Part shown: positions 56 to 58,866 of the stretch, one piece after another
How positions within the stretch are numbered: position 1 is the stretch's first letter
Layout: the number at the start of each line of letters is the position of its first letter
DNA from: a phage
Strand: one strand, 5' to 3'
DNA length: 64,000 nucleotides
Sequence record: PX930852.1
Position numbers and translations under genes: made by a program
The notes under the pieces: generated by a model
The model's input: the letters and a program-made list of their open reading frames with translations, nothing else
Told to the model about the DNA's origin: nothing
The model's database searches: none

Positions 56-2047
56 TCACTCAGTTTCGAACGGGCAGTCATCTGCATCCTCACTTAATAC
101 AGGTGGAATCGTTGAGCTTTGACGCTGCTCTTCAGTATAGACTTCACCAGTCTCACGGTCAAACACTTCATCCTCATAATGTGGCAAAGAGTCATCGTAA
201 TGGTCTTCAGCTTCACCAATACCAAACTGTTGGCGAATATTTTCTGCTGCACCATCAATGTCAACTCCACAACCAGAGGCTTTAATGAGACGTCCTGTAT
301 CTGGATTGTACCAAGTATGACCAGCAATGCCTGTTGACTTACCGTGACGACGGCATTTAGTTAACTTGATTTTTGTCAAGTTTTTCTTAACAGGGTCTGG
401 GTCAACCTTGTTACGCATTAACAGAATGTTGTTCATAGAAATCTGGAAATACGCACCAGAACCTTTAATATCCTCTTCAGAGATATCTCCACCTTCGGAG
501 TTAGCCTTCTGACCACCTGCACTCTTACGAACGTGACAGACGTTCACCTGTGCATACTGGTAGCGTTTGCAACGACGCAATAGCTCAGATAAAACTTCCT
601 CTTCATCCGTATCTGAACGTGACAGAGCCAACGTAATAGGGTCAAGAATAATAATCTTACAGTCTAAGCTGTTAACAAGATAGTCAACAAACTCCAGCAA
701 GTTATCTTGGTCAATTGCCCCTTGATGGTCAACGATGTGGATACGACGACCTTTAGACAGTTCTGCGTGTGCCTTCTTCAATTCATCCCAATCACGTTCG
801 TCATAAGGAATCTCAGAAATCTGCTTGCTCAGGTGGATTGCACAGAGCATCTCCATCAACTCTTCATAGGTATCTTCTACAGGAATTACACCAATATTGT
901 AATCGGTATCTTTCCAAGCAGTATAAATCATTTCACGAGTGTATGCAGATTTACCCACTGAAGATGGTGCTGCCAGAGTTGTAATCTCACCTAAACCGTA
1001 ACCACCATAAGTCAGTCTGTTCAAATCCCCGAAAGATTCTGGGAAAGGAATCAATGGAATCTGACCACGATTCTTCATTGCCTCAAAACCATCTGCAAAG
1101 TTCTTGATACCAGCAGGGCAATAACGAGGTGCGTTGTAGATACGCTGCTTAAATCCTTCCAGAACTGTGTCTTTCTCTTTATAGAACTTTGTCCACCATT
1201 CGTTAAGGTCTTTTACACCCTCTGGATACTGGAATAAACGAACCTTCTCGATAGGTAAGATACCAGCAGCCTCTTTGGTAGCTTTAGCACCTGCTTCATC
1301 GTTATCAAAGCACAAGTAAATTTCATCAAATGATGTGATGTACTGATAGTTATCTTTGATAGACTTGATGTTTGCACCTGACGGAACAGATACATGACAG
1401 TAATTCTTACGACGAGATTTGTCCTTAATCGCAAGAGAAGTCATATAGATTGCTGTCGCACATTCCATCTCACCTTCCCAGATGAATAGACGGTTACCAC
1501 CTTCTGGAGCAATCCATGAACCGAACATTGCCAGTTCACCTTTAATGTCTCCAACACCACCTGAGAAGTCTTTTAGCTTACCTCGTAGGTGTTCTTTTGG
1601 ATGGTCTTCTGGATAACGATGACGTACACGGTAACCGACGTGCTCTAGCTTACCATCTTCATTACGTTTGTAAGTTGGATAGAAATGCGCATCAATTTCA
1701 CCGTCACTGTCAATGTCAACCTTGATACCCAAACGCTCAAGAACTTTTGCAGGAATCTTCCTGTCCTTTAAGTCCATTGCTTCAAGGTTTTCTTTCACAT
1801 CGTCTAAATCCATTCCACGGAAAGTACGGTTTTTATTGTCTGAACCAGTAGAATAAGTGCTCACGATTTGTCCTTTATCAAAATCCCACTCTGGGAAACC
1901 TTTGTTACAACTAAAGCAAGTCATTGAATAAGAATCATCGTCATGGTGATAGATTGAACCAGCATCTGATGAACCACAACGTGGACATGCGCAATGACCA
2001 ACAAACTGACCAGCCTCTTTCAATTTACGACCTTTAGACATTAGCAC
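56..2047 (-). CDS. bifunctional DNA primase/helicase (T7 gp4-like)
   Basis: 663-aa ORF; N-terminal CxxC..CxxC zinc ribbon (CACPRCG..CFSCNKG), acidic TOPRIM-like motifs (WEGEME, FDNDE), DnaB-type Walker A (APSSVGKSA) in C-terminal half. Confidence 0.8.
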   Translation of the reverse strand: MLMSKGRKLKEAGQFVGHCACPRCGSSDAGSIYHHDDDSYSMTCFSCNKGFPEWDFDKGQIVSTYSTGSDNKNRTFRGMDLDDVKENLEAMDLKDRKIPAKVLERLGIKVDIDSDGEIDAHFYPTYKRNEDGKLEHVGYRVRHRYPEDHPKEHLRGKLKDFSGGVGDIKGELAMFGSWIAPEGGNRLFIWEGEMECATAIYMTSLAIKDKSRRKNYCHVSVPSGANIKSIKDNYQYITSFDEIYLCFDNDEAGAKATKEAAGILPIEKVRLFQYPEGVKDLNEWWTKFYKEKDTVLEGFKQRIYNAPRYCPAGIKNFADGFEAMKNRGQIPLIPFPESFGDLNRLTYGGYGLGEITTLAAPSSVGKSAYTREMIYTAWKDTDYNIGVIPVEDTYEELMEMLCAIHLSKQISEIPYDERDWDELKKAHAELSKGRRIHIVDHQGAIDQDNLLEFVDYLVNSLDCKIIILDPITLALSRSDTDEEEVLSELLRRCKRYQYAQVNVCHVRKSAGGQKANSEGGDISEEDIKGSGAYFQISMNNILLMRNKVDPDPVKKNLTKIKLTKCRRHGKSTGIAGHTWYNPDTGRLIKASGCGVDIDGAAENIRQQFGIGEAEDHYDDSLPHYEDEVFDRETGEVYTEEQRQSSTIPPVLSEDADDCPFETE

Positions 2048-2246
2048 CTCTTCGTTGTAGTTCTGCCTTCAATCCATTTTCAATCTTGTCCAGTTCATGA
2101 ATTTCATCTGCAATCTCTTTCCTTCGTGATTCAACTCTCTTAAGACGTTCAATCATTACCTCATTGGAAAGAGATGAGAGTTCCACTAAACGGTGGTCAA
2201 TAACTTTAAAATTGTCTTTTACTCTCATCTTCATTATCTCTTTCAA
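2034..2246 (-). CDS. hypothetical protein (70 aa, coiled-coil)
   Basis: ORF overlapping flanking genes by a few nt (coupled arrangement). Confidence 0.4.
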   Translation of the reverse strand: MKEIMKMRVKDNFKVIDHRLVELSSLSNEVMIERLKRVESRRKEIADEIHELDKIENGLKAELQRRGANV

Positions 2247-2986
2247 ACTTTAATGATGGCTCTTAGCTTGTTCTCAAGGTCTGCAAGAGTACCATTATTA
2301 TGAATAATGTCACGCTCATATTTTGTAGAAATCCCATTTTCTGAAACATGTGATGAAACTTTGTCCACATTGTCTCTTTTTACTTCAATAGTTTGGTGTG
2401 CAAATCTACTCAGCCATTCAGCTTCAGAGTCAAATCTTAAATCACTGATTAAGACAAAACCATATTGATTTCTAAGTGAGCACATTTCATGGAATCTAAC
2501 CATTCTTTTTTCAAGGTCTTTAGACCAGAACTTGTCGCCCATTACTTTACGGACAACTTCAGTACCCCAAATCTGTTGAATTTGTCTTGATGAGAATTTA
2601 TACTTTTTACTAAACCCCAGACGTGTCAATAGAGTCGGTTTAGCAACCTTCTTAAGCTCCATGATTAATCGTCCGGTTAACTCTGACATAAGCTTGAAGT
2701 CCATATGGTAACGTTCATCCCTGAAGGTGAACTCCATAGCTTCCGTAACTTTAAACATCAGTTCATGATATGATAAGTCAAATACCTGCGGAGTCTCTTT
2801 AGTTTCACCGTACAGGTCATTCCAAGTCAAGTCAAATATCTTTGATGCAGATAGTTTAAGGTTGTCTGCAAAGGCCATTACTGCAACATTGTAGCCGTGC
2901 TCATCCTCTAAGATGTTCTTCACAATAGAACATGAGGTGTCTTTTCCAGAACGCGCCTTTCCAGTAAATGCTATAATATTACTCAT
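2243..2986 (-). CDS. P-loop nucleotide kinase, dNMP kinase-like
   Basis: 247-aa ORF with N-terminal GKARSGKDT P-loop resembling phage deoxynucleoside monophosphate kinases. Confidence 0.55.
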   Translation of the reverse strand: MSNIIAFTGKARSGKDTSCSIVKNILEDEHGYNVAVMAFADNLKLSASKIFDLTWNDLYGETKETPQVFDLSYHELMFKVTEAMEFTFRDERYHMDFKLMSELTGRLIMELKKVAKPTLLTRLGFSKKYKFSSRQIQQIWGTEVVRKVMGDKFWSKDLEKRMVRFHEMCSLRNQYGFVLISDLRFDSEAEWLSRFAHQTIEVKRDNVDKVSSHVSENGISTKYERDIIHNNGTLADLENKLRAIIKV

Positions 2987-3003
2987 TTTATCTCCATTAA
3001 TTA

Positions 3004-3029
3004 CTAAAAAGCCCCCAACTAAGGAGGCT
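3004..3029 (-). terminator. rho-independent terminator-like hairpin
   Basis: minus-sense AGCCTCC-loop-GGGGGCT followed by U-run. Confidence 0.45.
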
Positions 3030-3047
3030 TGTAAGATTTATAAAGAC

Positions 3048-3848
3048 TTAGTGCAGTTGGTCAGCAGACTCTTTTTCAGCCATAGCTGAGATTTGCTTCA
3101 CAAAATCATCACCAAAGTTAATGCGCAGCTTCTCTTCAATGATTGAAGCACCAATGCTCACCAGAACATCATTGATTGCTTGCATACTCACACCACCAGT
3201 CATACTCTCAATGAACTCAATGCTTGTGCCCATCATCTGTGAAAGCTGGATTAGTGCAACGATATTCATCATCGTAGAGATGGCTGGAATCATCAATGCA
3301 ACTTTCACCTGAAGTGGTTCAATGTCAGCTACAGAATCATTTTTTACAGCTTCTTCCAAAGAATCTTTGGTTTGCTGGATAATCTCTTTGATTCGTGGGT
3401 TTAATTCCTCTACACCCCAATCAAGCTTTTCATATCGTGACAGCTTCTCTTCCATTCGCTTCTCAAGAGCAGCCATAACAGCACTCGTTGATGAGATAAG
3501 CGTATCAATAATGAAATCAGTGTCCTTAGTCAGCAACAGTTCCTTATCTTCGTCTGACATCCTGATATAGTCATTCTTTTGCATTTCATAAAAAATGAAC
3601 TCAGCAAGTGCATCAACACCAACCGCAATAGATGCCAGAGCAAGTGTAGTGTCTGTCAACATCATATTAACCTGTTCTGCAAAAGCACCGTTATCAGACT
3701 TGTCTTCAGGCAAGTTATAGCTTGCAGGCATAAACTGTTCTGTGTAGTTATTACCACGAAGAATCATAGCCATGCTTTCTACGGCATTGATTAAGAATGC
3801 TTCATCAACACCTTTCTCTTCAAGCATCTTTTCTACATCGATATTCAT
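3048..3848 (-). CDS. hypothetical protein (266 aa)
   Basis: long ORF, coding-like composition, abuts next gene. Confidence 0.5.
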   Translation of the reverse strand: MNIDVEKMLEEKGVDEAFLINAVESMAMILRGNNYTEQFMPASYNLPEDKSDNGAFAEQVNMMLTDTTLALASIAVGVDALAEFIFYEMQKNDYIRMSDEDKELLLTKDTDFIIDTLISSTSAVMAALEKRMEEKLSRYEKLDWGVEELNPRIKEIIQQTKDSLEEAVKNDSVADIEPLQVKVALMIPAISTMMNIVALIQLSQMMGTSIEFIESMTGGVSMQAINDVLVSIGASIIEEKLRINFGDDFVKQISAMAEKESADQLH

Positions 3849-3849
3849 A

Positions 3850-4272
3850 TTATTTCTCTCTCAGTTGGTTAAGTTTCTTTCTAGAACATTTTAAGTTTTC
3901 GGATGAAGAAAAGTCAAGTGTCTTTTCAGAACGTGGATAATAGTGCCTATCCCAAGAAGTTTCAACATCGTTAATCAGTGACGCTAGATTACACAGGTCT
4001 GTACCACTTTGCAACCTCTTTTTAAGAGAATCTAGTAAAGCAACTGTGTCTTTAGCTTTACGTCTCGCTGTAGCAACATCTTTCATATGCTCAAATACAG
4101 AGCATTTTAAGTCATCTTCATAGTTTTCAGACAACTCTATTTCATGTTGTATATCAACCATTCTCCTGTGATGGTGAGCATATTCCCGTTGAGCAGCAAT
4201 GTCAAGTTCTTCCAACTTCTGCAAAGCTCTAACAAAGTCAGCTATGTCTGGGTGAACAAACATTTTCTGCAT
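3850..4272 (-). CDS. hypothetical protein (140 aa)
   Basis: ORF immediately upstream of 3048..3848 on same strand. Confidence 0.5.
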   Translation of the reverse strand: MQKMFVHPDIADFVRALQKLEELDIAAQREYAHHHRRMVDIQHEIELSENYEDDLKCSVFEHMKDVATARRKAKDTVALLDSLKKRLQSGTDLCNLASLINDVETSWDRHYYPRSEKTLDFSSSENLKCSRKKLNQLREK

Positions 4273-4436
4273 GTAAGCCTCTTTTAAGTAACTATTAAGT
4301 TTTAATCTTTTATCTTAACGTATTCTATACGTTATACTTTAAAGCTTTTTAAAAGCTATTAAATAATCTTTTAAGAATTTTAAAGTATCTGTATAGTTAA
4401 ACTGTTAAGTAACCTTTTAAGTAAAAACCCACTTCG

Positions 4437-4470
4437 CAAAGATTAACACCTTGTCAAGTGCATTGTCAAC
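4437..4470 (+). promoter_or_regulatory. conserved tandem TTGTCAA promoter-like element (copy 1)
   Basis: ACCTTGTCAAGTGCATTGTCAACTTGCTTTTTATA upstream of DNA polymerase; near-identical copy at 47188. Confidence 0.45.
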
Positions 4471-4529
4471 TTGCTTTTTATAATTTTTTGCAGTAATGTA
4501 TGAGGTTAATGATTTTAGAGGGAGTAAAA

Positions 4530-7229
4530 ATGGAAAACGTAGATTTTAAAAACTTACATTTAGTTGGTGATACAGAAACTGATGGTTTACTCCTTGAGTT
4601 CACTAAAGTGCACGTAATGGCTTTCGCAGACTATAAATCTGACGATGAAGAGCCACCTGTATGGGTCTTTACGGATGAACCTATCCTCGGTCACAAGTAT
4701 ACCAAGTACATTAAGGGTGGCTTACGTGAAGGTGTTGAATTTGCGTTAAAGGCAAAACGTCTTTGCATCCATAACGGTCTCGGTTATGACTGGTGGGTTT
4801 TTAATCACATTGCACCTGATTTATGGAACTTTGATAATCCAAAGTGTAAGCCGTGGAGTAATTTCTTTCAGGATTCTCTTATCCAGTCTCGTGTTCAGTG
4901 GATGGATAGACCAACTCCAAAGGGTTATAAAGGTGCTCATGGCTTGGCTGCATGGGGTGCTCGTGTTGGTGTTCGTAAGCCAGAGATTGAGCATTGGGGT
5001 GTGTGGAATGCAGAAATCTTCACTCGTGTTGTAGAAGATATCCGTATTAACGCCAAAACTAAACGGGCACTTGATAACGAGTATCTCAAGCTTAAGAAGT
5101 GTGGCATAGACACTTATGAAACTTACATGCGAGCTAAAGAAACATCTTTCTGGATGAGTCAACAAGCTATCAATGGTTGGAAAGCTGATAAAGAGCTTAT
5201 GGAGTTCCATGTAAAGGAGCTTGACAAGTTGACTAATGAGCTTGCTTCAGAGGTTGAACCACATCTACCTCCAACTATTAAGACCAAAGGTAAAGTCACT
5301 GGAGAAGAGTTTGCAAAAGCTTGGAATGAGTATGTTGAAACATTTGGTCATGCAGATGGACTGAAAAGAATTACCAAGTACCCTAAGACAAAGTATCGTC
5401 AGCAGGTACGTAATGGTGAGATGCAGACATACGAAATCAAACCATTTGGTAAGCCAACTACAAAGATTTTTAACATTGAAAAGAGAAATTGCTATACACC
5501 AACCAACTCTGTAACTGGTGAAGAGTACAAGGAAGGCTTTGTAGCAATGAAGGATGCTCGTGCAATTTGCAATGAGTTGAACGCAAAGATTGGTAAGAAA
5601 TGCAAAGACTGGAAGCCAGTAAAAACAGTCAAAACTGTGAAGTACTATAACAGCCACGTTGTTAACCACTTTGAACTTGAGTCAAGTCGCTACACAGGTT
5701 TGATTGATGCACCATATACACCAATTGAGTTTGAAGTTTCTCGTATGACTCAGGTAGCAGTTGTTAAAGACTACTTGAAATCAGTTGGTTGGATTCCAGA
5801 TGACTGGAACTACAAGAAAGACTCAGATGGTCGCCCTGTCAAAGTTTGTCGTTTCAAAGACAATAAAAAGATGATTACAAAACATCCTAAGTGGCAGGAG
5901 ATGGTGGAACGATGTGGTTTAAGTTATGTTGAACATGAAGGTGTCCAGTACATTGAGCATAACTGGTCTGTGAAGAAGTACACAGATTTGCTTGAGCCTT
6001 GCTTAATCCGTACTTCACCAAAACTTACTGAATCATCTTATGATACGATTGAAGGTGAGCTTGGACAGAAGATTGCTAAGTACTATACTTTGATGCACCG
6101 ACGCAGAACTATTGAGAACTCAAAGGATGATGAAAAAGGTTGGTTGAACCAGATTCGTCCTGATGGTCGCCTTAGTGCTGGTGCAATGGTGTTCGGTACT
6201 TCAACTGGACGTATGACGCAATATGGTATTGTAAACGTACCGTCTGGTGCTGCTGTCTATGGGGAACCAATGAGGGCAGTGTGGATTTGTGAGGAAGGTA
6301 CTAACGTTGTCTCTGTAGATATGAACTCTGCCCAGCTAGTTCTTCTTTGTAACTTTATGGGTGATAAAGACTTCACCAAAGCGGTAACGCAAGGTAAAGA
6401 AGAAATTGAGTTCATTCGTCAAGAAGATGGACGCTATTACTGCAAACACTTTGATGAGTACCTCAACCCAGAGATTGATAAGTACCTTCGCTATGACTCT
6501 GAGAATGACCTGTACGTTGTTTATTCAGGGACTGATGCACATACACTGAACAGTATCTACTTTAGCTTGAATGATGAGCAGGATATCTTGACTTGTCGAG
6601 CTACTCAGGATGAGAATCTTCTTCATGAGATTAGCAAAGGTCGTAAGAAAGCTAAGAATGGTATCTATGCACTACTGTTCGGTGCAGGGGATGAGAAGTT
6701 TGCTAAGACGATTAAAGCTGCAACTACTCAGGAAGGCGCACTGACTAAACAGACTTATTTTATTCGTTTGCCTAAAATTAAGAAGCTGTTAGATGACTTG
6801 GAAGCTGACTACAAAGCAACTAAAAAGGCACTTGAAGAGGTGTTTGGTAAGACTGCTGCAATCTCTAAAGGGGGTTTTGTAAAGGTTGCTGGAGCTTGGT
6901 TGTGGTGTAAATCTCCACACAAACTGTTGAACTACCTTTTGATGGGTTCAGAGGCCCAGATTCAAAATGAGGCAATTAACCTTGCTTGTCGTCGCATGAT
7001 TGACGAAGGGTTGATGAAGCTAAATGGGCGTAAACCAGCTATAGGTGCTCGTTTGCTCTGCGCATATCACGATGAAACAAGTTGGGAATGCCCAGAAAGT
7101 ATGACGGCAGAAGTGAAAGCAGTTACTGACTGGTATTATGGACAAGCTTCTAAAAACTTAGGTCTTAAGAAAGAAACACTTGTTACAGGTACTGGTAAGG
7201 TTGGTAAAAGCTGGCTTGAAGTACACTAA
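4530..7229 (+). CDS. DNA polymerase, family A (Pol I/T7-like) with 3-5 exonuclease domain
   Basis: ORF 4500..7229; start chosen at ATG 4530 preceded by GGAG; DTETDG exonuclease motif, motif B-like K..IYALLFGAG, motif C YHDE. Confidence 0.85.
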   Translation: MENVDFKNLHLVGDTETDGLLLEFTKVHVMAFADYKSDDEEPPVWVFTDEPILGHKYTKYIKGGLREGVEFALKAKRLCIHNGLGYDWWVFNHIAPDLWNFDNPKCKPWSNFFQDSLIQSRVQWMDRPTPKGYKGAHGLAAWGARVGVRKPEIEHWGVWNAEIFTRVVEDIRINAKTKRALDNEYLKLKKCGIDTYETYMRAKETSFWMSQQAINGWKADKELMEFHVKELDKLTNELASEVEPHLPPTIKTKGKVTGEEFAKAWNEYVETFGHADGLKRITKYPKTKYRQQVRNGEMQTYEIKPFGKPTTKIFNIEKRNCYTPTNSVTGEEYKEGFVAMKDARAICNELNAKIGKKCKDWKPVKTVKTVKYYNSHVVNHFELESSRYTGLIDAPYTPIEFEVSRMTQVAVVKDYLKSVGWIPDDWNYKKDSDGRPVKVCRFKDNKKMITKHPKWQEMVERCGLSYVEHEGVQYIEHNWSVKKYTDLLEPCLIRTSPKLTESSYDTIEGELGQKIAKYYTLMHRRRTIENSKDDEKGWLNQIRPDGRLSAGAMVFGTSTGRMTQYGIVNVPSGAAVYGEPMRAVWICEEGTNVVSVDMNSAQLVLLCNFMGDKDFTKAVTQGKEEIEFIRQEDGRYYCKHFDEYLNPEIDKYLRYDSENDLYVVYSGTDAHTLNSIYFSLNDEQDILTCRATQDENLLHEISKGRKKAKNGIYALLFGAGDEKFAKTIKAATTQEGALTKQTYFIRLPKIKKLLDDLEADYKATKKALEEVFGKTAAISKGGFVKVAGAWLWCKSPHKLLNYLLMGSEAQIQNEAINLACRRMIDEGLMKLNGRKPAIGARLLCAYHDETSWECPESMTAEVKAVTDWYYGQASKNLGLKKETLVTGTGKVGKSWLEVH

Positions 7230-12669: not shown

Positions 12670-12882
12670 ATGGCTCTTAAAAAGTTACATCCCAGAAGCG
12701 GTTATGGTAAGATAATTGACGATACAGACGGATTTACAGTCTTTACAGTCATCTGTCAAGATGATTCACAGATTGAAAAGGCTCTTGACGATTATCTTAA
12801 CGATGAACGTGAAAAGGTTAGGGCTACAAACATAGATTCATTGATTGACACTTCACGCAAACGGAAGAAGAAAGATGAATGA
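12670..12882 (+). CDS. hypothetical protein (70 aa)
   Basis: ORF adjacent to 12285..12668; lysine-rich C-terminus. Confidence 0.4.
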   Translation: MALKKLHPRSGYGKIIDDTDGFTVFTVICQDDSQIEKALDDYLNDEREKVRATNIDSLIDTSRKRKKKDE

Positions 12883-13174
12883 GATTTTTGACCCTTATGC
12901 TCCACAAGATGATTGGGAGGCTGATAGAGAGGCTGAAATGGAGAGTTATATTTGTCCAATGGATGTAGATGAAATGAGAGATTTCGTTGCACATCGTTTT
13001 AAGAGAGAGATTAAATCCAGAGGTCTTTCTCAAGAGCAAGTTGCTAAAATTTGTGGTATCTCTCAGGCTCGTGTATCCAACATAATCCATCTCACTGGTA
13101 ACGTCTCCCTTGAGTATATGTTGGAAGTATGTGAAAAATTTGGTGTTAATTTTAATTTAAGGTTGGCAGATTAA
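12875..13174 (+). CDS. HTH DNA-binding protein
   Basis: ORF 12845..13174 trimmed to ATG 12875 (ATGA-type overlap with upstream stop); helix-turn-helix-like LSQEQVAKICGISQARVSNI. Confidence 0.5.
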   Translation: MNEIFDPYAPQDDWEADREAEMESYICPMDVDEMRDFVAHRFKREIKSRGLSQEQVAKICGISQARVSNIIHLTGNVSLEYMLEVCEKFGVNFNLRLAD

Positions 13175-13175
13175 T

Positions 13176-13535
13176 ATGAAACGTGAAAACATTATCCACT
13201 CTGAAAACTTCGCATTAGGCTTTTATGGCGTACCCACTCACCTTGAAAAGTATTATGGTGTGAAGATTCTCTCCAATCTCATTATGGCTTACAAAGATGG
13301 TAAGATTAAGCATACTGAGAAGAAACGTGTCATGGGCTATATGGCTGTAGGTTCAGCAATCTCGAACATTAAGCTGGAAACAACTAGCAGTCAGCTTGTG
13401 AAAGACCACTTCATCAAAGAGCTTTACCAGAATCTTGATGGTGTAGATGTTCAGGCTGTTTGGTTGGATGTTGATGGTCATAACTACACAAGTTTTGTTT
13501 TTAAAAACGACGACATTAAGTGCTTGTTCCCATAA
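13176..13535 (+). CDS. hypothetical protein (119 aa)
   Basis: ORF in tight operon arrangement. Confidence 0.5.
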   Translation: MKRENIIHSENFALGFYGVPTHLEKYYGVKILSNLIMAYKDGKIKHTEKKRVMGYMAVGSAISNIKLETTSSQLVKDHFIKELYQNLDGVDVQAVWLDVDGHNYTSFVFKNDDIKCLFP

Positions 13536-14325: not shown

Positions 14326-14867
14326 TTAAATTAATCTTTGCAAGTGGTGAAAATGGGGAGTTTGGTACTCCAACTGGTATGCCGTGGCCTCGACATAAAC
14401 AGGACATGCAAGAGTTTAAGAGACTCACTAAAAATAACTTAGTAGTCATGGGTAATGAGACTTTTAAGACTCTGGGTAGTAAACCTCTACCAGAACGTGC
14501 AAACCTAATCTTAACAAATTCTGTACCATACTTAGGTATAGATTTTGGCAAAGATGGTGTAATGTATGCTAAGGCCAGCAAAGAATCCTTTGGAGCATTT
14601 TTGAAGTATCTTGATAGCTCTATTGATGAAGATGTCTTTGTAATTGGTGGTGCAGGTGTCCTTGTCAATGCTTTACCGTATGCTGGTGTGGTGTTCCATA
14701 CAGTCTTCCATAAAGTTACTGAAGAGGCTACTGTGCATTTACCTTTTGAAAACTTCTTTGAGAAGCTGTATGATAACCGTGTATTTACAAAGGTACAGTC
14801 AAAACCATCAGAGGATGGTAAAGCAACTTTTGAAATTTATGTTCCACAAGTAAAAGGACACTTTTGA
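14322..14867 (+). CDS. dihydrofolate reductase
   Basis: 181-aa ORF, N-terminal MIKLIFA..G..G.PW motif typical of DHFR; immediately upstream of thymidylate synthase. Confidence 0.7.
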   Translation: MIKLIFASGENGEFGTPTGMPWPRHKQDMQEFKRLTKNNLVVMGNETFKTLGSKPLPERANLILTNSVPYLGIDFGKDGVMYAKASKESFGAFLKYLDSSIDEDVFVIGGAGVLVNALPYAGVVFHTVFHKVTEEATVHLPFENFFEKLYDNRVFTKVQSKPSEDGKATFEIYVPQVKGHF

Positions 14868-14868
14868 T

Positions 14869-15768
14869 ATGTCACAAGCAGATTCAAGTTACAAAAATAT
14901 CCTGAACCATGTTTTATCCGTTGGTGAACTGCGTACTACACGAACTGGAGATGTTATCTCTGCATTTGCTCCACCTCAGTTTCGTTTTGATATGCGAACT
15001 GGTTTCCCGCTCTTAACATCTAAACAGGTGTTTACACGGCAAGTCATTGGGGAAGCTTTATGGTTCCTGAATGGTGAGAATAAACTTAGTGAACTCCGTT
15101 ATCGCACTTGGGGTGAAAATGATGGAGAACGTTGGACTATCTGGTCAGATGATTTTAAACGTTGGTTAAGCTCTAACTATTCTTCTGAGCAAGACTGGTT
15201 AGAAGATGCAGGTGGGAGAATCTACGGGGTTCAGTGGAGAAACTTCGAAGGTCATAATGGTTGTGTTGTAGACCAGTTAGAGGCCTTAGTAACGAAGATG
15301 AAGGGTGATATCACAGACCGTTACATGCTTGTTAATGCTTGGAATGCAGCAGATATTGCAGCAAACTCAATGGCTTTAGCACCTTGTCATGTTCTGTTTC
15401 AGATTTATATCACTAATGAAGGTGAAGTGGATTTGCAATGGTATCAGCGTTCTGTAGACACCTTTTTAGGACTTCCATTCAACATTGCGTCTTATGGCTT
15501 CATCTTAGAAGTTCTTTGCAAGATGACTGGATACACTCCACGGTACTTGATAGGTGTCTTTGGAGATACTCAGATTTATCAGAACCATATGAAGCAGGTT
15601 TATGAACTGATAAACAATGAAGAGTTCCATGCACCTACTTTTGAGATTGGTGTACAGCTTAACACTCTAAGTGATTTAAAACACCTTACTGCAAGTGATT
15701 TTATTGGCGGCATTAACAACTACCAACATGCAGGGAAGATTGAAGCACCTCTGTCAGTAGGTAAGTAA
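14869..15768 (+). CDS. thyA: thymidylate synthase
   Basis: 299-aa ORF with catalytic-cysteine context LAPCHVLFQ and typical ThyA length. Confidence 0.85.
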   Translation: MSQADSSYKNILNHVLSVGELRTTRTGDVISAFAPPQFRFDMRTGFPLLTSKQVFTRQVIGEALWFLNGENKLSELRYRTWGENDGERWTIWSDDFKRWLSSNYSSEQDWLEDAGGRIYGVQWRNFEGHNGCVVDQLEALVTKMKGDITDRYMLVNAWNAADIAANSMALAPCHVLFQIYITNEGEVDLQWYQRSVDTFLGLPFNIASYGFILEVLCKMTGYTPRYLIGVFGDTQIYQNHMKQVYELINNEEFHAPTFEIGVQLNTLSDLKHLTASDFIGGINNYQHAGKIEAPLSVGK

Positions 15769-15776
15769 AACAAAAA

Positions 15777-15798
15777 AGGCTCCCGTAAAAAGGAGCCT
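15777..15798. terminator. bidirectional terminator between convergent genes
   Basis: AGGCTCC-loop-GGAGCCT hairpin flanked by A-run and T-rich tract. Confidence 0.55.
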
Positions 15799-15804
15799 TA
15801 AACT

Positions 15805-16176
15805 TTATTTTTCAGTATTCTTTGTGTTCTTCTCAGTAATAGCTTGCAAGGCTGATACTGATTGAGCCAGATTGTTCACACTGTCAGAGAATTTATCAAG
15901 AGTTTTGGTAAGTTTTGCGTTTTCACCCTTAACATTCTCTAACTGAACTTTCTGGTTCTCCATCCCTAGCTGAATCAGTCTCATGTCAGACTGTAAATCA
16001 CGAATAGCTGAATAGTTACTTTTGGAATAATTATCTAGCTGCTGTAACTTTGTTGTGACAGACACTTCTTGCTTACCACTTGAAACTTGCATAGTGGTAT
16101 ACATCCCAATAACACTAAAAATACCAACTACAATTGCACCAATATTGTTTTTAAAAGCTTCCTCTAGCCACTTCAT
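15805..16176 (-). CDS. membrane-anchored coiled-coil protein (possible spanin/holin-like)
   Basis: N-terminal TM segment IGAIVVGIFSVIGMY followed by coiled-coil; sits downstream of the tail fiber genes. Confidence 0.45.
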   Translation of the reverse strand: MKWLEEAFKNNIGAIVVGIFSVIGMYTTMQVSSGKQEVSVTTKLQQLDNYSKSNYSAIRDLQSDMRLIQLGMENQKVQLENVKGENAKLTKTLDKFSDSVNNLAQSVSALQAITEKNTKNTEK

Positions 16177-16371
16177 TTATTTCTCCCCCTTAAAAGCTTT
16201 TTCTAAGTTATCTACGAACTCATCATCAATAGGCGTGTCTGTTTTACTCGCAAGGTATCTTGCAAGCTTAAAGAACACTTTCTCAATCATGTATTCACTT
16301 AGAAGGGATAAAATGAGTTTCCAGAAGAAGCTACCTAGATTTTTTAGAAGAATTGCTAGGATTGTAGGCAT
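16177..16371 (-). CDS. small membrane protein (64 aa)
   Basis: hydrophobic N-terminus; abuts 15805..16176. Confidence 0.4.
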   Translation of the reverse strand: MPTILAILLKNLGSFFWKLILSLLSEYMIEKVFFKLARYLASKTDTPIDDEFVDNLEKAFKGEK

Positions 16372-20071: not shown

Positions 20072-28093
<8,022 letters not shown>

Positions 28094-46686: not shown

Positions 46687-47058
46687 TTATTTTTTAAGAG
46701 TCGCTACAGCAGAGAACGTTGGTTTGTTATCTGTCTGTTGTTGACCACCATTATCAGGAGTCTTCTTAGTGTCTGCTGCAAGTGCTTTCATCTCACCTGC
46801 TGAGTGAGTAAAGATAGTTTTACCGACCTCAATCATACTCTTGATGGTTACGTCATCTGTGTTTAACCCGAACTCTGCAAGCTTAGCAGCATCCCTTGTA
46901 ACAATCGCTTCAAATAACTTTGCAGCAAACTCAGCAGAATTGTCAATGGTCAGTTGAGCTTTTACAAGTGAGCTTTTGTTGCGAGAGCCTTTTGGTCTTC
47001 CAGATGGGTTTCCAGATTGGCCTTTTTTAAACTGGCCTTTGTTTGTTCTGTTTTTCAT
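46687..47058 (-). CDS. hypothetical protein with GNPSGRPKG motif
   Basis: 123-aa ORF; basic N-terminus with Gly/Pro-rich motif. Confidence 0.45.
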   Translation of the reverse strand: MKNRTNKGQFKKGQSGNPSGRPKGSRNKSSLVKAQLTIDNSAEFAAKLFEAIVTRDAAKLAEFGLNTDDVTIKSMIEVGKTIFTHSAGEMKALAADTKKTPDNGGQQQTDNKPTFSAVATLKK

Positions 47059-47187
47059 TGGTATGCCTCTTATAAGACCTCTTAAAAGGCTTTTAAGATA
47101 AAAGATAGATATCCAGAAAGATATCTGTTTAAATAGCCTTTTTAGAGGAACCTTTTAAGTAATCTTCTAAGTATTTATAAGCCTACA

Positions 47188-47222
47188 CCTTGTCAAGTAC
47201 TTTGTCAACAACTTTTTTAACT
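47188..47222 (+). promoter_or_regulatory. conserved tandem TTGTCAA promoter-like element (copy 2)
   Basis: ACCTTGTCAAGTACTTTGTCAACAACTTTTTTAAC upstream of plus-strand operon starting 47308; shared upstream AACCTTTTAAGTAA box. Confidence 0.45.
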
Positions 47223-47307
47223 TGCAATAGTTCTTGACTTGTTGTATGGATTACTGTACCATCTTACTTAAAGCTGTAGGTCTGCCTTGTTCTACAAAGG
47301 AGACTTA

Positions 47308-47469
47308 ATGAGAAAATCAAATAAACCGAAGAAAGGTAAGAATACCAATCACTGTAAGGAATCAAAAAGGGTAGAGTCAATCTACTATTCATCCTCTGAA
47401 ATTGGTCTGTACCTGTTCTTTCAAAATTACAGAAGACAAGAGGATTATCTATGTGTAGTTCCCAATTAG
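47308..47469 (+). CDS. small basic protein (53 aa)
   Basis: ORF 47287..47469 trimmed to ATG 47308, which follows AAGGAGA RBS. Confidence 0.4.
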   Translation: MRKSNKPKKGKNTNHCKESKRVESIYYSSSEIGLYLFFQNYRRQEDYLCVVPN

Positions 47470-55448: not shown

Positions 55449-55459
55449 AATATCTTAAG

Positions 55460-55490
55460 AGCCTCCTTAATCGGGGGCTTTTTAATTTTT
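55460..55490 (+). terminator. rho-independent terminator closing plus-strand operon
   Basis: AGCCTCC-TTAATC-GGGGGCT followed by TTTTTAATTTTT. Confidence 0.65.
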
Positions 55491-57064
55491 ATAAAATTTT
55501 ATCGGTTGTCCCAACCTCTGGGTCACCATCATATGTGAATAAAATATCTATCCTTCTTAACAACCTTCTTAATCTTACTCTCTATATAGTTATATAGTAC
55601 TATATAGTATCTTAGTAACTATCTAGTGGTCTTAATAGCCCCTCTGTATAACCCTTCTAACAAGCCCTCTAACAAGCCTTCTTAACAACCTATACAATCA
55701 CCTTAACCATCCCTCTACACCTTCTTAGAAGCTCCTATACACCTCTTAATCTCTATGTCAGCTATGATAATCTCTATAGGTGTTCACTAGGTATTACTAA
55801 GCCTCTATATAGACTGTTTTAATAAACTTAACAGGAATATCTTTACAGGCCTTATCTCACAAGGTCTAACACGGTACTAACAAGGTATCTTATAAGCCTG
55901 TTATTACCTGTATTTTTAAAAGGCTGTATAGGTAATTATTCAGAATCTTAAAATTTTTATAAAATAGGACTGTCAAGTCATTTTTTAGGGTCTTTGAAGG
56001 AACTCAAAAATATCTGATTAGGATGTATATCTGCTTGGTAGCCCTTAACAGCTCCCTTACAAGTACTTTGCAAAATTTTAAAATATCCTTAACAATTTCT
56101 TAACAGTTCTAACACCTTCTTAACAACTCTTCAAAGGTCTTAACAGATTCTTAACAGAACTAACAAGGCTGTAACAGATTTCTAACAAGTACTGAATAGG
56201 CTTTACAGAATCTTAACAGATGACTAACAAGAGCTAACAAGTTAATTTTTAAGAGTTATTTTGTTAAGATAATTAACAAGTTTCTAACAAGTGTTTAATC
56301 TTTTTAACAAGCTATTAACATGGTCACTATCTCTTTTCTTATCGTTCCCTTTCCTTTCTTAGTGACTTCTTAAACATACCTCTTAAAAGCCCTCTATAGC
56401 TCCTTGTAAGCCCTTTTAAGCCTCTTCCTAGTATCTATCCCCCAACTGTACAGATAGCTCTTTATAGGGCTTTACAGGAGCTTATAAGGCTATGTCAAAG
56501 ACTCTTACAAGGCTTTTACGTGGTCTTAACAGAGATTTAACAAGGGGCTAACAAGTTGCTAACAAGTGCCTTAAAAGCATAACTATGTAGGGATTGTTAA
56601 GAAATTGTTAAGAAAATGTTAAGGGGGCTAGCATTTACGTAACTTTATAGCCTCTTTTACGTAACTTTGAAGTAACTTTATAGCCCCTATAACATACTTT
56701 TAAGACACTACCAATAGGATTCGATAGATTCCTATCTCATAGCCCTTTTTAATAGTTCACAAGAATACTAACGAGATGATAAAGCTTACACCCTTATAAG
56801 ATTCTTTTAAGGCTCTAGGAAGTTTTATAAAGGGATTTTTAGGGTGAGTTAATGCAATCCCTTAAGTTAGGTTGATAAGGCTGTTATAGAGCTTTATAGA
56901 GCGTTTTAGTGGTTGCCCTTCCCTTTCGGGTTATGGGCTTATATTTAAGTTGATTTGATAAGAAGATATAGAGTAGACTATAGAGTTATTGCTTTTAAGG
57001 TCTGGTAAGATTCTAACTTGTTAGGGGAGTCTGGGAAGATTCTGGGAAGGGATTGGATAGACGT
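55491..57064 (+). repeat. ORF-free region dense in TAACAAG/TAACAGA-type motifs
   Basis: no ORF of 60 aa or more in any frame; tens of CTTAACAA/CTAACAAG/TTAACAGA copies almost all on plus strand; secondary repeats TTACGTAACTTT and GTAACTTTATAGCC. Confidence 0.7.
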
Positions 57065-57094
57065 AAAAAAGCCCCTATGAGAAGGAGCTTTTCA
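57065..57094. terminator. terminator closing minus-strand early array
   Basis: AAAAAA-AGCCCCT-loop-AGGAGCT-TTTT; second hairpin GGGGCTAAATAGCCCC at 57102-57117. Confidence 0.5.
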
Positions 57095-57127
57095 GGTATC
57101 TGGGGCTAAATAGCCCCGTTGCGTCGA

Positions 57128-57771: not shown

Positions 57772-58302
57772 TTACAGACTTTTAAGTGTCTCGTCAATAT
57801 CTTTTTCAATGTCTTTTAAAGTTTTTTCTAAGTTCTTGATATTGAAGGATAAACCTTCACCGAGAGTCTTAGAGTAACCACTAGGACGTAAATTATACAG
57901 TTTAATTTCTTCCACTTTAAAGAGACTAACTAACTCACCGTTTACATCATAAGCCATTGAAACAGTATTTGCAGGTGCATTGTAAAACTTGTTTAGTGAC
58001 TTGATAGAACGTTCATAAGCCATTTTATAACCGTTTAAAAGGTTTTTAACGTGGTTGTGAACGTTTTTACACTCATCTAAGTAAATCTCTAAGAATAACG
58101 GTAATAATTCCGCTACAGCTTGCATAAAGTGAGAGACTACAACGGTTGCAACATTACGACGATGTACATAATAAGCCCCGTTTTCTGACTTAGTGATGGT
58201 TGCAAAGTGTACCCCATTACAACGAAATTCATATGTATCTTTTACAGGCTTAGACATTACAGCATTTGAACGAATGAAGTTGATAGCTTTAAACTTGTTC
58301 AT
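57772..58302 (-). CDS. hypothetical early protein (176 aa)
   Basis: preceded by type-A cassette and RBS. Confidence 0.5.
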   Translation of the reverse strand: MNKFKAINFIRSNAVMSKPVKDTYEFRCNGVHFATITKSENGAYYVHRRNVATVVVSHFMQAVAELLPLFLEIYLDECKNVHNHVKNLLNGYKMAYERSIKSLNKFYNAPANTVSMAYDVNGELVSLFKVEEIKLYNLRPSGYSKTLGEGLSFNIKNLEKTLKDIEKDIDETLKSL

Positions 58303-58375
58303 TTTGACTCTCCTAGTTTAAGGATTTTACTTAGTGGGGAAGGTCATTCCCTCCCCGTTGATTAGTAATTTACTT
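58303..58375 (-). promoter_or_regulatory. type-A early-gene cassette
   Basis: same conserved hairpin and RBS module. Confidence 0.55.
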
Positions 58376-58462
58376 GTTTTGATAGTTGATTGCAAGTAAT
58401 TTTTTGAGCTTATCTATAAAGAATCTTTTAAGTTAATCCCTTTTAGATAAACCCCCTCGAAC

Positions 58463-58492
58463 AAAGTTACCAATGTCAAGGGGTATTGTCAA
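58463..58492. promoter_or_regulatory. tandem TGTCAA element (copy 3), orientation ambiguous
   Basis: ATGTCAAGGGGTATTGTCAACACTTTTTTA in plus orientation inside a minus-strand gene array. Confidence 0.3.
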
Positions 58493-58524
58493 CACTTTTT
58501 TAAAAGTTTTTTGTAAGTCATTGA

Positions 58525-58866
58525 TTAACTGATGAATATTTTTTCAGGTTTTACATAGCTGATACGCTGACTTTTTAGCAGGTCATCCCAGATTAACGCG
58601 GCGATATGGGTATAACCGGATTCACGTAAAAGTTTCATTGTTTTACTTCTCGTTTCAAAACGGCTTGCATAGTACTCACTATTCAGCGTCGTTTTATTCC
58701 CTTCGTTGTCTACATGGATAATCTGCATCACTTGAAAGGGGCTTGTGTCCTCGCCTTTATTCCACTGTTCAAAGTATTTTAGGCACTGCATAGGTGACAT
58801 CTTATCACTGACCTGAGTTGACCAAGATGCGCCAGCTTTATCGGTAATTACGGTTACATAAGCCAT
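58525..58866 (-). CDS. hypothetical early protein (113 aa)
   Basis: preceded by type-A cassette and RBS. Confidence 0.5.
   Translation of the reverse strand: MAYVTVITDKAGASWSTQVSDKMSPMQCLKYFEQWNKGEDTSPFQVMQIIHVDNEGNKTTLNSEYYASRFETRSKTMKLLRESGYTHIAALIWDDLLKSQRISYVKPEKIFIS

Follow-up and report, generated by a model that had tools for sequence, protein, structure and literature searches.

What does a doubled TGTCAA hexamer do when it lies, in plus orientation, between two genes that both run on the minus strand? The question is raised by one locus in the window, the 64,000-nucleotide stretch of phage DNA analysed here, for which an earlier note had proposed that an orphan copy of the motif might drive an antisense or small RNA, or else be a bidirectional regulatory site. 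The 30-mer concerned, ATGTCAAGGGGTATTGTCAACACTTTTTTA, exists on the plus strand at 58473-58502; it had been placed ten nucleotides too low, starting at 58463, the range of 58463-58492 still covering both TGTCAA hexamers (58474-58479 and 58487-58492). The rest of the description holds. The element occupies a 222-bp intergenic gap (58303-58524), with the 113-aa minus-strand ORF 58525-58866 on one side and the 176-aa ORF 57772-58302, likewise minus-strand, on the other; no plus-strand ORF of at least 60 aa follows it (none of even 30 aa or more starts before 59041), and its minus-strand reading, TTGACA-N7-TTGACA, contains two TTGACA hexamers. It is also the third copy of a tandem motif in the window (4452, 47191 and 58474, referred to below as copies 1, 2 and 3). 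As to what it does, we consider it likely, with good confidence and from the arrangement and conservation of the sequence, that the element would be an early promoter for the host RNA polymerase (sigma-70 type), lying on the minus strand and co-directional with the surrounding genes.

The window represents a Felixounavirus genome (a Felix O1-like myovirus), 92-97% identical to many Escherichia, Salmonella and Shigella phages and reversed in orientation compared with the usual GenBank layout. Its minus-strand blocks comprise the early array (57.1-64 kb), a tRNA and structural block (15.8-47.06 kb) and the genes at 56-4272, and its plus-strand blocks the DNA-polymerase unit (4.5-15.8 kb) and the stretch at 47.3-55.4 kb. 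Copies 1 and 2 are located in divergent intergenic regions (4273-4531 and 47059-47308, corresponding to the Felix O1 gene pairs 96/97 and 40/41), each with a minus-strand gene directly downstream in the other direction, and it is because of this location that they had appeared to face plus-strand genes. All three copies share their polarity with the downstream minus-strand gene, and the element is therefore no orphan in plus orientation. An exact search for TGTCAA-N(4-12)-TGTCAA returned only these three sites in the window, all on the plus strand, against 0.24 expected from dinucleotide shuffles, none of 100 shuffles reaching three; the element thus exceeds chance and belongs to a set of three paralogous copies. 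Phage ASO1A, whose complete genome is 87.6 kb long, likewise holds exactly three tandems (13302, 24062 and 64929), all on the gene-sense strand, where 0.17 would be expected by chance. The coordinates of the features discussed below are collected in Table 1.

Table 1. Features of the copy 3 locus, of its paralogs and of related sites; positions refer to the window unless another record is named.
Feature	Position	Strand	Remarks
UP-element-like A/T-rich region	58493..58515	-	two A6 tracts (58512-58507, 58501-58496) directly 5' of the -35
Hexamer 1 TTGACA, proposed -35	58487..58492	-	6/6 match to consensus
Inter-hexamer stretch ATACCCC, 7 nt	58480..58486	-	free to vary, 5/7 columns variable
Hexamer 2 TTGACA	58474..58479	-	inside the promoter spacer, about -22 to -17
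TG and -10 hexamer TAACTT	58464..58472	-	TG 58472-58471; -10 58469-58464; 17 bp from hexamer 1
Predicted transcription start, ~A58457	58456..58458	-	placed from the usual 7 +/- 1 nt distance after the -10
A/U-rich stem-loop, 45 nt	58408..58452	-	conserved, ~5 nt after the predicted start; minimum-free-energy fold
P2, second, proximal promoter-like site, TTGCAA-N17-TAAATT	58367..58395	-	
GC hairpin GGGGAGGG-AATGA-CCTTCCCC	58336..58356	-	between P2 and the RBS; from the fold
Downstream gene, 176 aa, Felix O1 gp22 homolog	57772..58302	-	first gene the promoter would serve
Copy 1, TTGACA-N6-TTGACA, TAATCT	4440..4469	-	-10 at 18 bp from hexamer 1, TGT before it; ahead of minus-strand gene 3850-4272
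Copy 2, TTGACA-N6-TTGACA, TAGGCT	47180..47208	-	-10 at 17 bp from hexamer 1; ahead of minus-strand gene 46687-47058
AAAAAGnTG-TTGACA-N16-18-TAnnnT sites	10336, 12212	+	
AAAAAGnTG-TTGACA-N16-18-TAnnnT sites	43611, 45081, 45171, 46674, 60518, 61385	-	
Promoter/GC hairpin/RBS cassette, seven copies	57378, 57705, 58303, 58867, 60426, 61293, 63910	-	62-89 nt
Second intergenic cassette, six copies	59798, 60133, 60930, 62606, 62953, 63425		106 nt each; hairpin GAGGCTTAAG...CTTAAGCCCC
Promoter features in ASO1A (MZ726791)	13302-13328; 24074-24100; 64929-64956		copy 3; copy 2; copy 1, respectively

Read on the minus strand, copy 3 has the parts of a sigma-70 promoter. The two A6 tracts fall at about -39 to -44 and -50 to -55 and are kept in all 26 related loci examined, so that in composition and placement (A/T-rich, with A-runs at roughly -40 to -60) the region would qualify as an UP element. 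A GTG separates the nearer tract from hexamer 1, TTGG joins hexamer 2 to TAACTT, and a TG stands one base ahead of the -10. The -10 itself matches TATAAT at only 3/6 positions, with T1, A2 and T6 present, and a simple consensus promoter scan with a 4-of-6 rule for the -10 did not list the site. Transcription from sigma-70 promoters usually starts 7 +/- 1 nt from the last base of the -10 hexamer, which here gives the start predicted in Table 1. The marks by which a sigma-70 promoter may be recognised are found at this copy, namely a -35 at or near TTGACA, a -10 at 17 +/- 1 bp that carries A2 and T6, and a suitable orientation, with gene 57772-58302 (-) and its RBS following 155 nt after the predicted start. 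The layout AAAAAGnTG-TTGACA-N16-18-TAnnnT recurs at no fewer than eight other intergenic positions in the window, each facing downstream genes or the tRNA block; copy 3 belongs with them only when read in minus orientation. Several strong sigma-70-like promoters (43611, 45081 and 45171) were also observed interspersed with the 24 tRNA genes at 39802-45025 (-).

The paralogs suggest which of the two hexamers would serve as the -35. Hexamer 1 stands 17-18 bp from the -10 in all three copies, and hexamer 2 shifts within the spacer (6+6, 6+5 and 7+4 nt on its two sides); this constant distance, despite the shifting of hexamer 2, suggests hexamer 1 as the -35. The TG one base 5' of the -10 is present in copies 1 and 3. 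The possibility that hexamer 2 serves as the -35 of a second promoter was also considered and rejected, as no -10-like hexamer (TAnnnT) occurs 16-18 bp downstream of it in any of the three copies.

For copy 3, 26 IMG/VR contigs were fetched via the upstream gene, and the paralogous loci were fetched via their downstream genes. The tandem TTGACA pair is found in 25 of the 26 contigs, the exception (L028) having TTGACG as hexamer 1. Across the 26 loci one of six columns varies in hexamer 1 and none of six in hexamer 2, with five of seven variable between them (ATACCCC, ACGCCCC, ACTCCCC, ACCCCTC, ATGCCCC, ATCCCTC, TTGCCCC and ATACCCA); in the -10, T1, A2 and T6 never vary and positions 3-5 all do (TAACTT, TAATGT, TACATT and TAGATT). 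The 13 distinct sequences of copy 2 repeat this pattern, both hexamers being invariant (0/6 each), all six positions between them variable, and the -10 fixed at T1, A2 and T6 (0/3) and variable at each of positions 3-5 (3/3; TAGGCT, TAGCCT, TAAGTT and TAGTGT). Copy 1 is nearly invariant overall, and the sole variation in its promoter core lies between the hexamers. A fixed -35 and a fixed TA...T around a free interior is the footprint expected of a sigma-70 promoter, and the promoter-like, regulatory nature that had been suspected for the element is borne out by this conserved minus-strand TTGACA-N17-TAnnnT. Taking the 15 key columns together, the hypergeometric P is 0.012 for copy 3 (background 45/131 columns variable) and 0.0012 for copy 2 (background 28/85; key columns 0/15). 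Because the intergenic region as a whole is well conserved, with those 45 variable columns among 131, conservation alone discriminates only moderately. In GenBank, 242 phage records contain the 131-bp region, at 243 places in total; these come from Felixounavirus, Suspvirus and Citrobacter (Moogle-like) phages. Erwinia phage phiEa21-4 (Kolesnikvirus) and Pectobacterium phage Wc4-1 lack the tandem at their homologous gene-41 promoter, and single or back-to-back TTGACA promoters are present at that locus.

A promoter at this site has already been predicted or annotated in related records. In vB_EcoM_ASO1A (MZ726791) all three tandems carry the annotation 'promoter, similar to TTGACA(N15-18)TATAAT', and comparison with the FO1a sequence shows copy 2 to be the published Felix O1 promoter P41, given by Whichard et al. 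(2010) as TTGACA(N15)TATAGG in the 40-41 intergenic region (PMC3185647, section 2.5). FO1a is classified as Felix O1, and its copy 3 falls between gp21 and gp22. It was observed that the FO1a (L085) homolog of the upstream 113-aa gene, at 2471-2593, is annotated as a truncated, 40-aa gp21; its frame is seemingly broken early, and the DNA homology runs on to the normal stop. The ASO1A features were also seen to pair the hexamers differently from one another, using hexamer 1 with N15 at 13302-13328, hexamer 2 with N15 at 24074-24100 and hexamer 1 with N16 at 64929-64956. More distant loci do not conserve the pairing chosen there for copy 2 (hexamer 2, N15, AATACT), and at all three sites conservation favours hexamer 1 with N17-18 and TAnnnT over these pairings. 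What is new is a single detail, the invariant doubled -35 hexamer, by which a promoter class of three members is defined.

Downstream of the predicted start the leader has a structure of its own. The fold of the 153-nt leader has a z of -5.3. An alignment of 22 sequences shows the A/U-rich stem-loop at its beginning to be paired in 96.7% of cells, and three loci carry one compensatory replacement of A-U by U-A. No U-tract follows this stem-loop, so that it is not a terminator and no small RNA is predicted from it. Beyond it lies P2, of which TTGCAA is invariant in relatives and the -10 is either TAAATT or TATAGT, and which belongs to a repeated family of promoter/hairpin/RBS cassettes (families D2 and D3). 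The GC hairpin between P2 and the RBS (AGGAG, 58314-58310, for gene 57772-58302) is present in seven copies in the early array and is labelled 'terminator' in ASO1A, though no U-tract follows it. The seven-copy cassette was seen to run in the order sigma-70-like promoter (-10 TAAATT), GC hairpin GGGGAGGGAATGACCTTCCCC, RBS; these hairpins lack a U-tract, stand just after the promoter and look like stabilising 5' stem-loops. The second, six-copy cassette is the counterpart of the 57-bp direct repeats noted in Felix O1.

Other repeats were observed nearby. Between about +12 and +25, the leaders that follow the three tandem promoters share the motif TTA(T)CT(T)AAAAGG. The 8-mer CTTTTAAG/CTTAAAAG is present in 31 copies in the window against about four expected (our own estimate, from base composition), for example at 4281, 4368, 4414, 47090, 47152 and 58425, being concentrated in the leaders 3' of the three tandem promoters and in intergenic regions of the early array. 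The value of CTTAAAAG as a common signal is doubtful, for it occurs in mixed contexts (a terminator tail with RBS, the arms of hairpins, leaders) that no single explanation covers. Between the convergent transcription units, about 1.7 kb (55449-57127) contain no ORF of 75 aa or more, and the homologous gap in ASO1A (14733-16270) is unannotated. The minus strand of this stretch holds some 30 short direct repeats, (C/T)TGTTA(A/G)(G/A)A, often 10-11 bp apart (e.g., 56079-56322, 56538-56568 and 55640-55700), together with CTATAGAG and CTTAAAAG motifs; this iteron-like array is a candidate replication origin or protein-binding array.

Taken as a sigma-70 promoter, copy 3 would work as follows. Host RNA polymerase would dock on the UP-like A-tracts, the -35 of hexamer 1 and the weak, TG-extended -10, and would start transcription near 58457; the transcript would cross the A/U-rich 5' stem-loop, then P2 and the GC hairpin, and enter the 176-aa gene and two genes beyond. 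Hexamer 2 would probably add a regulatory or RNA-polymerase contact common to the three promoters; this step is speculative, and the basic promoter model does not need hexamer 2. In Felix O1, ORFs 20, 21 and 22 are maximally expressed 5 min after infection according to RT-PCR timing (PMC3185647, Table 3), and this early peak fits a promoter used by unmodified host polymerase. Several points weigh against the model and should be borne in mind. The -10, as noted, is a 3/6 match; P2, 75 bp further downstream, could suffice for gene 57772-58302; the invariance of hexamer 2 is unexplained by a plain promoter; and the Felix O1 ORFs that follow copies 2 and 1, ORFs 41 and 97 respectively, reach their peak at 25 min and not at 5 min (PMC3185647, Table 3). 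It is the weakness of the -10, together with a start that is placed by prediction, that limits our confidence in the promoter reading. A transcriptome or start-site study of Felix O1-like phages was not found in the searchable literature.

It is then tempting to ask whether hexamer 2 may be a functional element in its own right, marking out the three-member promoter class and acting as an operator or as a second docking site for RNA polymerase. We put this forward tentatively, as a possibility well short of an even chance. If it were true, the class would head two of the four transcription units (Felix O1 genes 97-131/1-23 and 41-79) as well as one internal early unit. A phage regulator, for instance the Xre-type HTH protein, could then use hexamer 2 as its operator; alternatively, hexamer 2 could be a docking place for sigma region 4 or the beta' zipper, offsetting the weak -10 or timing early shut-off. 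According to Whichard et al. (PMC3185647), Felix O1 has no gene for an RNA polymerase, and no sigma-modifying factor has been recognised in it; how its temporal control is achieved without a polymerase or sigma factor made by the phage was left open by them. A functional hexamer 2 would bear on that question, and the three doubled -35 promoters would be obvious places at which to test the first recruitment, and possibly the later shut-off, of host RNA polymerase. Phages of this group are used in Salmonella typing and biocontrol.

Among the readings that compete with, or extend, that of a promoter, the one that survives best takes the direct TTGACA repeats, 12-13 bp apart from centre to centre, as sites for a phage or host protein which activates or represses the three promoters together. 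Such an operator or activator site could coexist with promoter function, and the candidate binder would be the phage Xre/Cro-type HTH protein encoded at 12845-13174 (+), which has a Pfam HTH_3 match (E = 6e-10) and counts as a transcriptional regulator in the ASO1A annotation. The invariance of a hexamer that a sigma-70 promoter does not need speaks for this, as does the fact that exactly three sites per genome share both the tandem and a similar leader motif, TTA(T)CT(T)AAAAGG. However, a dimer of fixed geometry would not easily fit a spacing that is 12 bp in copies 1 and 2 but 13 bp in copy 3, the repeat is the plain sigma-70 -35 consensus, and the tandem is missing from the homologous promoter of phiEa21-4 and Wc4-1. 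On balance we consider the operator unlikely, though it deserves to be kept in mind. The protein at 12845-13174 (+) is 109 aa long and labelled 'transcriptional regulatory protein' in ASO1A, and no other recognisable DNA-binding regulator was seen close to the early units; the protein was further observed to give a sub-threshold match to Sigma70_r4 (21.8 bits against a cutoff of 24.1).

A far less probable reading is that of the earlier note, a plus-strand or bidirectional element driving an antisense or small RNA, which would here run over the end of gene 58525-58866. The three copies do share some 45 bp of similarity on the plus-downstream side, copies 1 and 2 stand back to back with plus-strand promoters (e.g., the conserved TTGACT-N17-TACCAT at 47234-47262), and a weak TTGTAA-N17-GAATAT can be read on the plus strand at copy 3. 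Those last hexamers, however, partly overlap coding sequence and are changed in distant loci (TTGTAA to TTATAA, GAATAT to TAAAGA), and a promoter scan of 58300-58600 gave no plus-strand promoter-like site. The bases 9-10 bp after TGTCAA vary among relatives (TAAAAG, TGAAAG, TTAAAG, TAGAAG and TCAAAG), so that no plus-strand -10 is kept. No plus-strand ORF follows the element, as noted above, and an Rfam scan of the window at the gathering score matched tRNAs only (24 matches at 39.8-45.0 kb, none at 58.3-58.6 kb). A small RNA made from the minus strand fares no better: neither after the A/U hairpin nor anywhere else ahead of the gene does the transcript have an intrinsic terminator, and there is no Rfam match. 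The antisense, small-RNA, orphan and bidirectional readings are accordingly not supported; the motif is better described as a sense-strand promoter of host type, and there is no case for pursuing it as a new RNA or a new regulatory system. A plus-strand promoter resembling a PhoB box (TGTCAA-N-TTGTCAA, with a -10 ten bp on) was also tried and rejected: copy 1 has a perfect TATAAT, and in copies 2 and 3 the positions are not conserved. Around the plus-strand site beside copy 2 (47225-47262), it was seen that a TTGCAA six nt upstream of TTGACT makes another tandem -35-like pair, on the strand opposite to copy 2.

Equally hard to credit is the view that the conserved feature is an intrinsic terminator or RNA hairpin belonging to gene 58525-58866, formed on the minus strand by CCCCUUGA...UCGAGGGG (58483-58452) followed by GUUUAUCU, which would stop or stabilise that gene's transcript and in which hexamer 2 would be conserved as part of the stem. 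The hairpin is part of the minimum-free-energy fold of the read-through RNA and its eight pairs are 98.9% paired across 22 sequences, yet six of the eight never vary and are uninformative, only a single double change being seen. Nor does it look like a terminator, with a 15-nt loop on the 8-pair stem and only three consecutive U in the tail, and it went unreported in a terminator scan. Hexamer 2 is kept even at copies 1 and 2, which lack a co-directional gene upstream that could be terminated; moreover, the variable inter-hexamer bases of copy 2 do not covary with the downstream bases. Written as CCCCTTGA/TCGAGGGG, the terminator hairpin was rejected, having no U-tract and no informative covariation and making no sense at copies 1 and 2.

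Finally, it is scarcely plausible that the tandem is a functionless relic of slipped duplication of the -35 hexamer, passively inherited, even though degraded or duplicated -35 regions have been described around the recombining promoter cassettes of T4-like phages (PMC4122927) and the early array is full of repeated cassettes, since in two independent paralogs and across three genera the hexamers stay (nearly) invariant around an inter-hexamer stretch that turns over completely, and three co-oriented copies stand against the 0.17-0.24 expected. Readings based on other factors were also tried. A sigma-E-like reading (GTAACTT-N16-TCTAA) was rejected, its AAC core being variable among relatives, and for sigma-54, sigma-32 and IHF no adequate match was seen by eye.

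The likeness of the promoter proposed here to known systems is a matter of degree. The PeSL cassettes of T4-like phages, in which a stem-loop lies upstream of a sigma-70-like early promoter followed by a Shine-Dalgarno sequence and start codon (PMC4122927, PMC2839356), resemble the early array in being repeated intergenic cassettes of an early, ORFan-rich region that combine an AT-rich stretch, a sigma-70-like promoter, a stem-loop and a Shine-Dalgarno sequence. They belong to a different phage family, however, and the order in the 58303-58524 gap is promoter, stem-loop, RBS, the stem-loops (58452-58408 and 58356-58336) lying downstream of their promoters. The sites of lambda CII and P22 C1 (TTGC-N6-TTGC, flanking the -35) and the boxes of PhoB/OmpR-type regulators are likewise short direct repeats that overlap the -35 and the spacer. 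Those repeats have a fixed period of 10-11 bp, in contrast to the period found here, which is 12 bp for copies 1 and 2 and 13 bp for copy 3, and the plus-strand hexamer expected 9-10 bp on is not conserved.

A parallel in position is the Z-element, the sequence-dependent spacer contact of the beta' zipper at -22 to -18, about 4 bp upstream of the -10, which counts when the -10 is non-consensus (Yuzenkova et al., 2011; PMC3173786). Hexamer 2 lies in much the same place (about -24 to -17) and is accompanied by a weak -10; the analogy is positional only, as the Z-elements described are AACCT, AACAT and AATGT (PMC3173786) and hexamer 2 is TTGAC(A). The promoters predicted for the Felix O1 group (P41, PMC3185647; the ASO1A features) are by homology the same three sites, on the gene-sense strand, although those annotations are consensus predictions with N15 or N16 spacers that leave the tandem arrangement unmentioned. 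Compared with E. coli sigma-70 promoters, the weak -10 (TAACTT) and the second, equally conserved TTGACA in the spacer set the element apart, and the start given here is a predicted one. In other respects it has much in common with those that combine an UP element with an extended -10 (TGn), sharing with them TTGACA, a spacer of 17 bp (18 in copy 1), upstream A-tracts and a conservation concentrated on the -35 and on positions 1, 2 and 6 of the -10.
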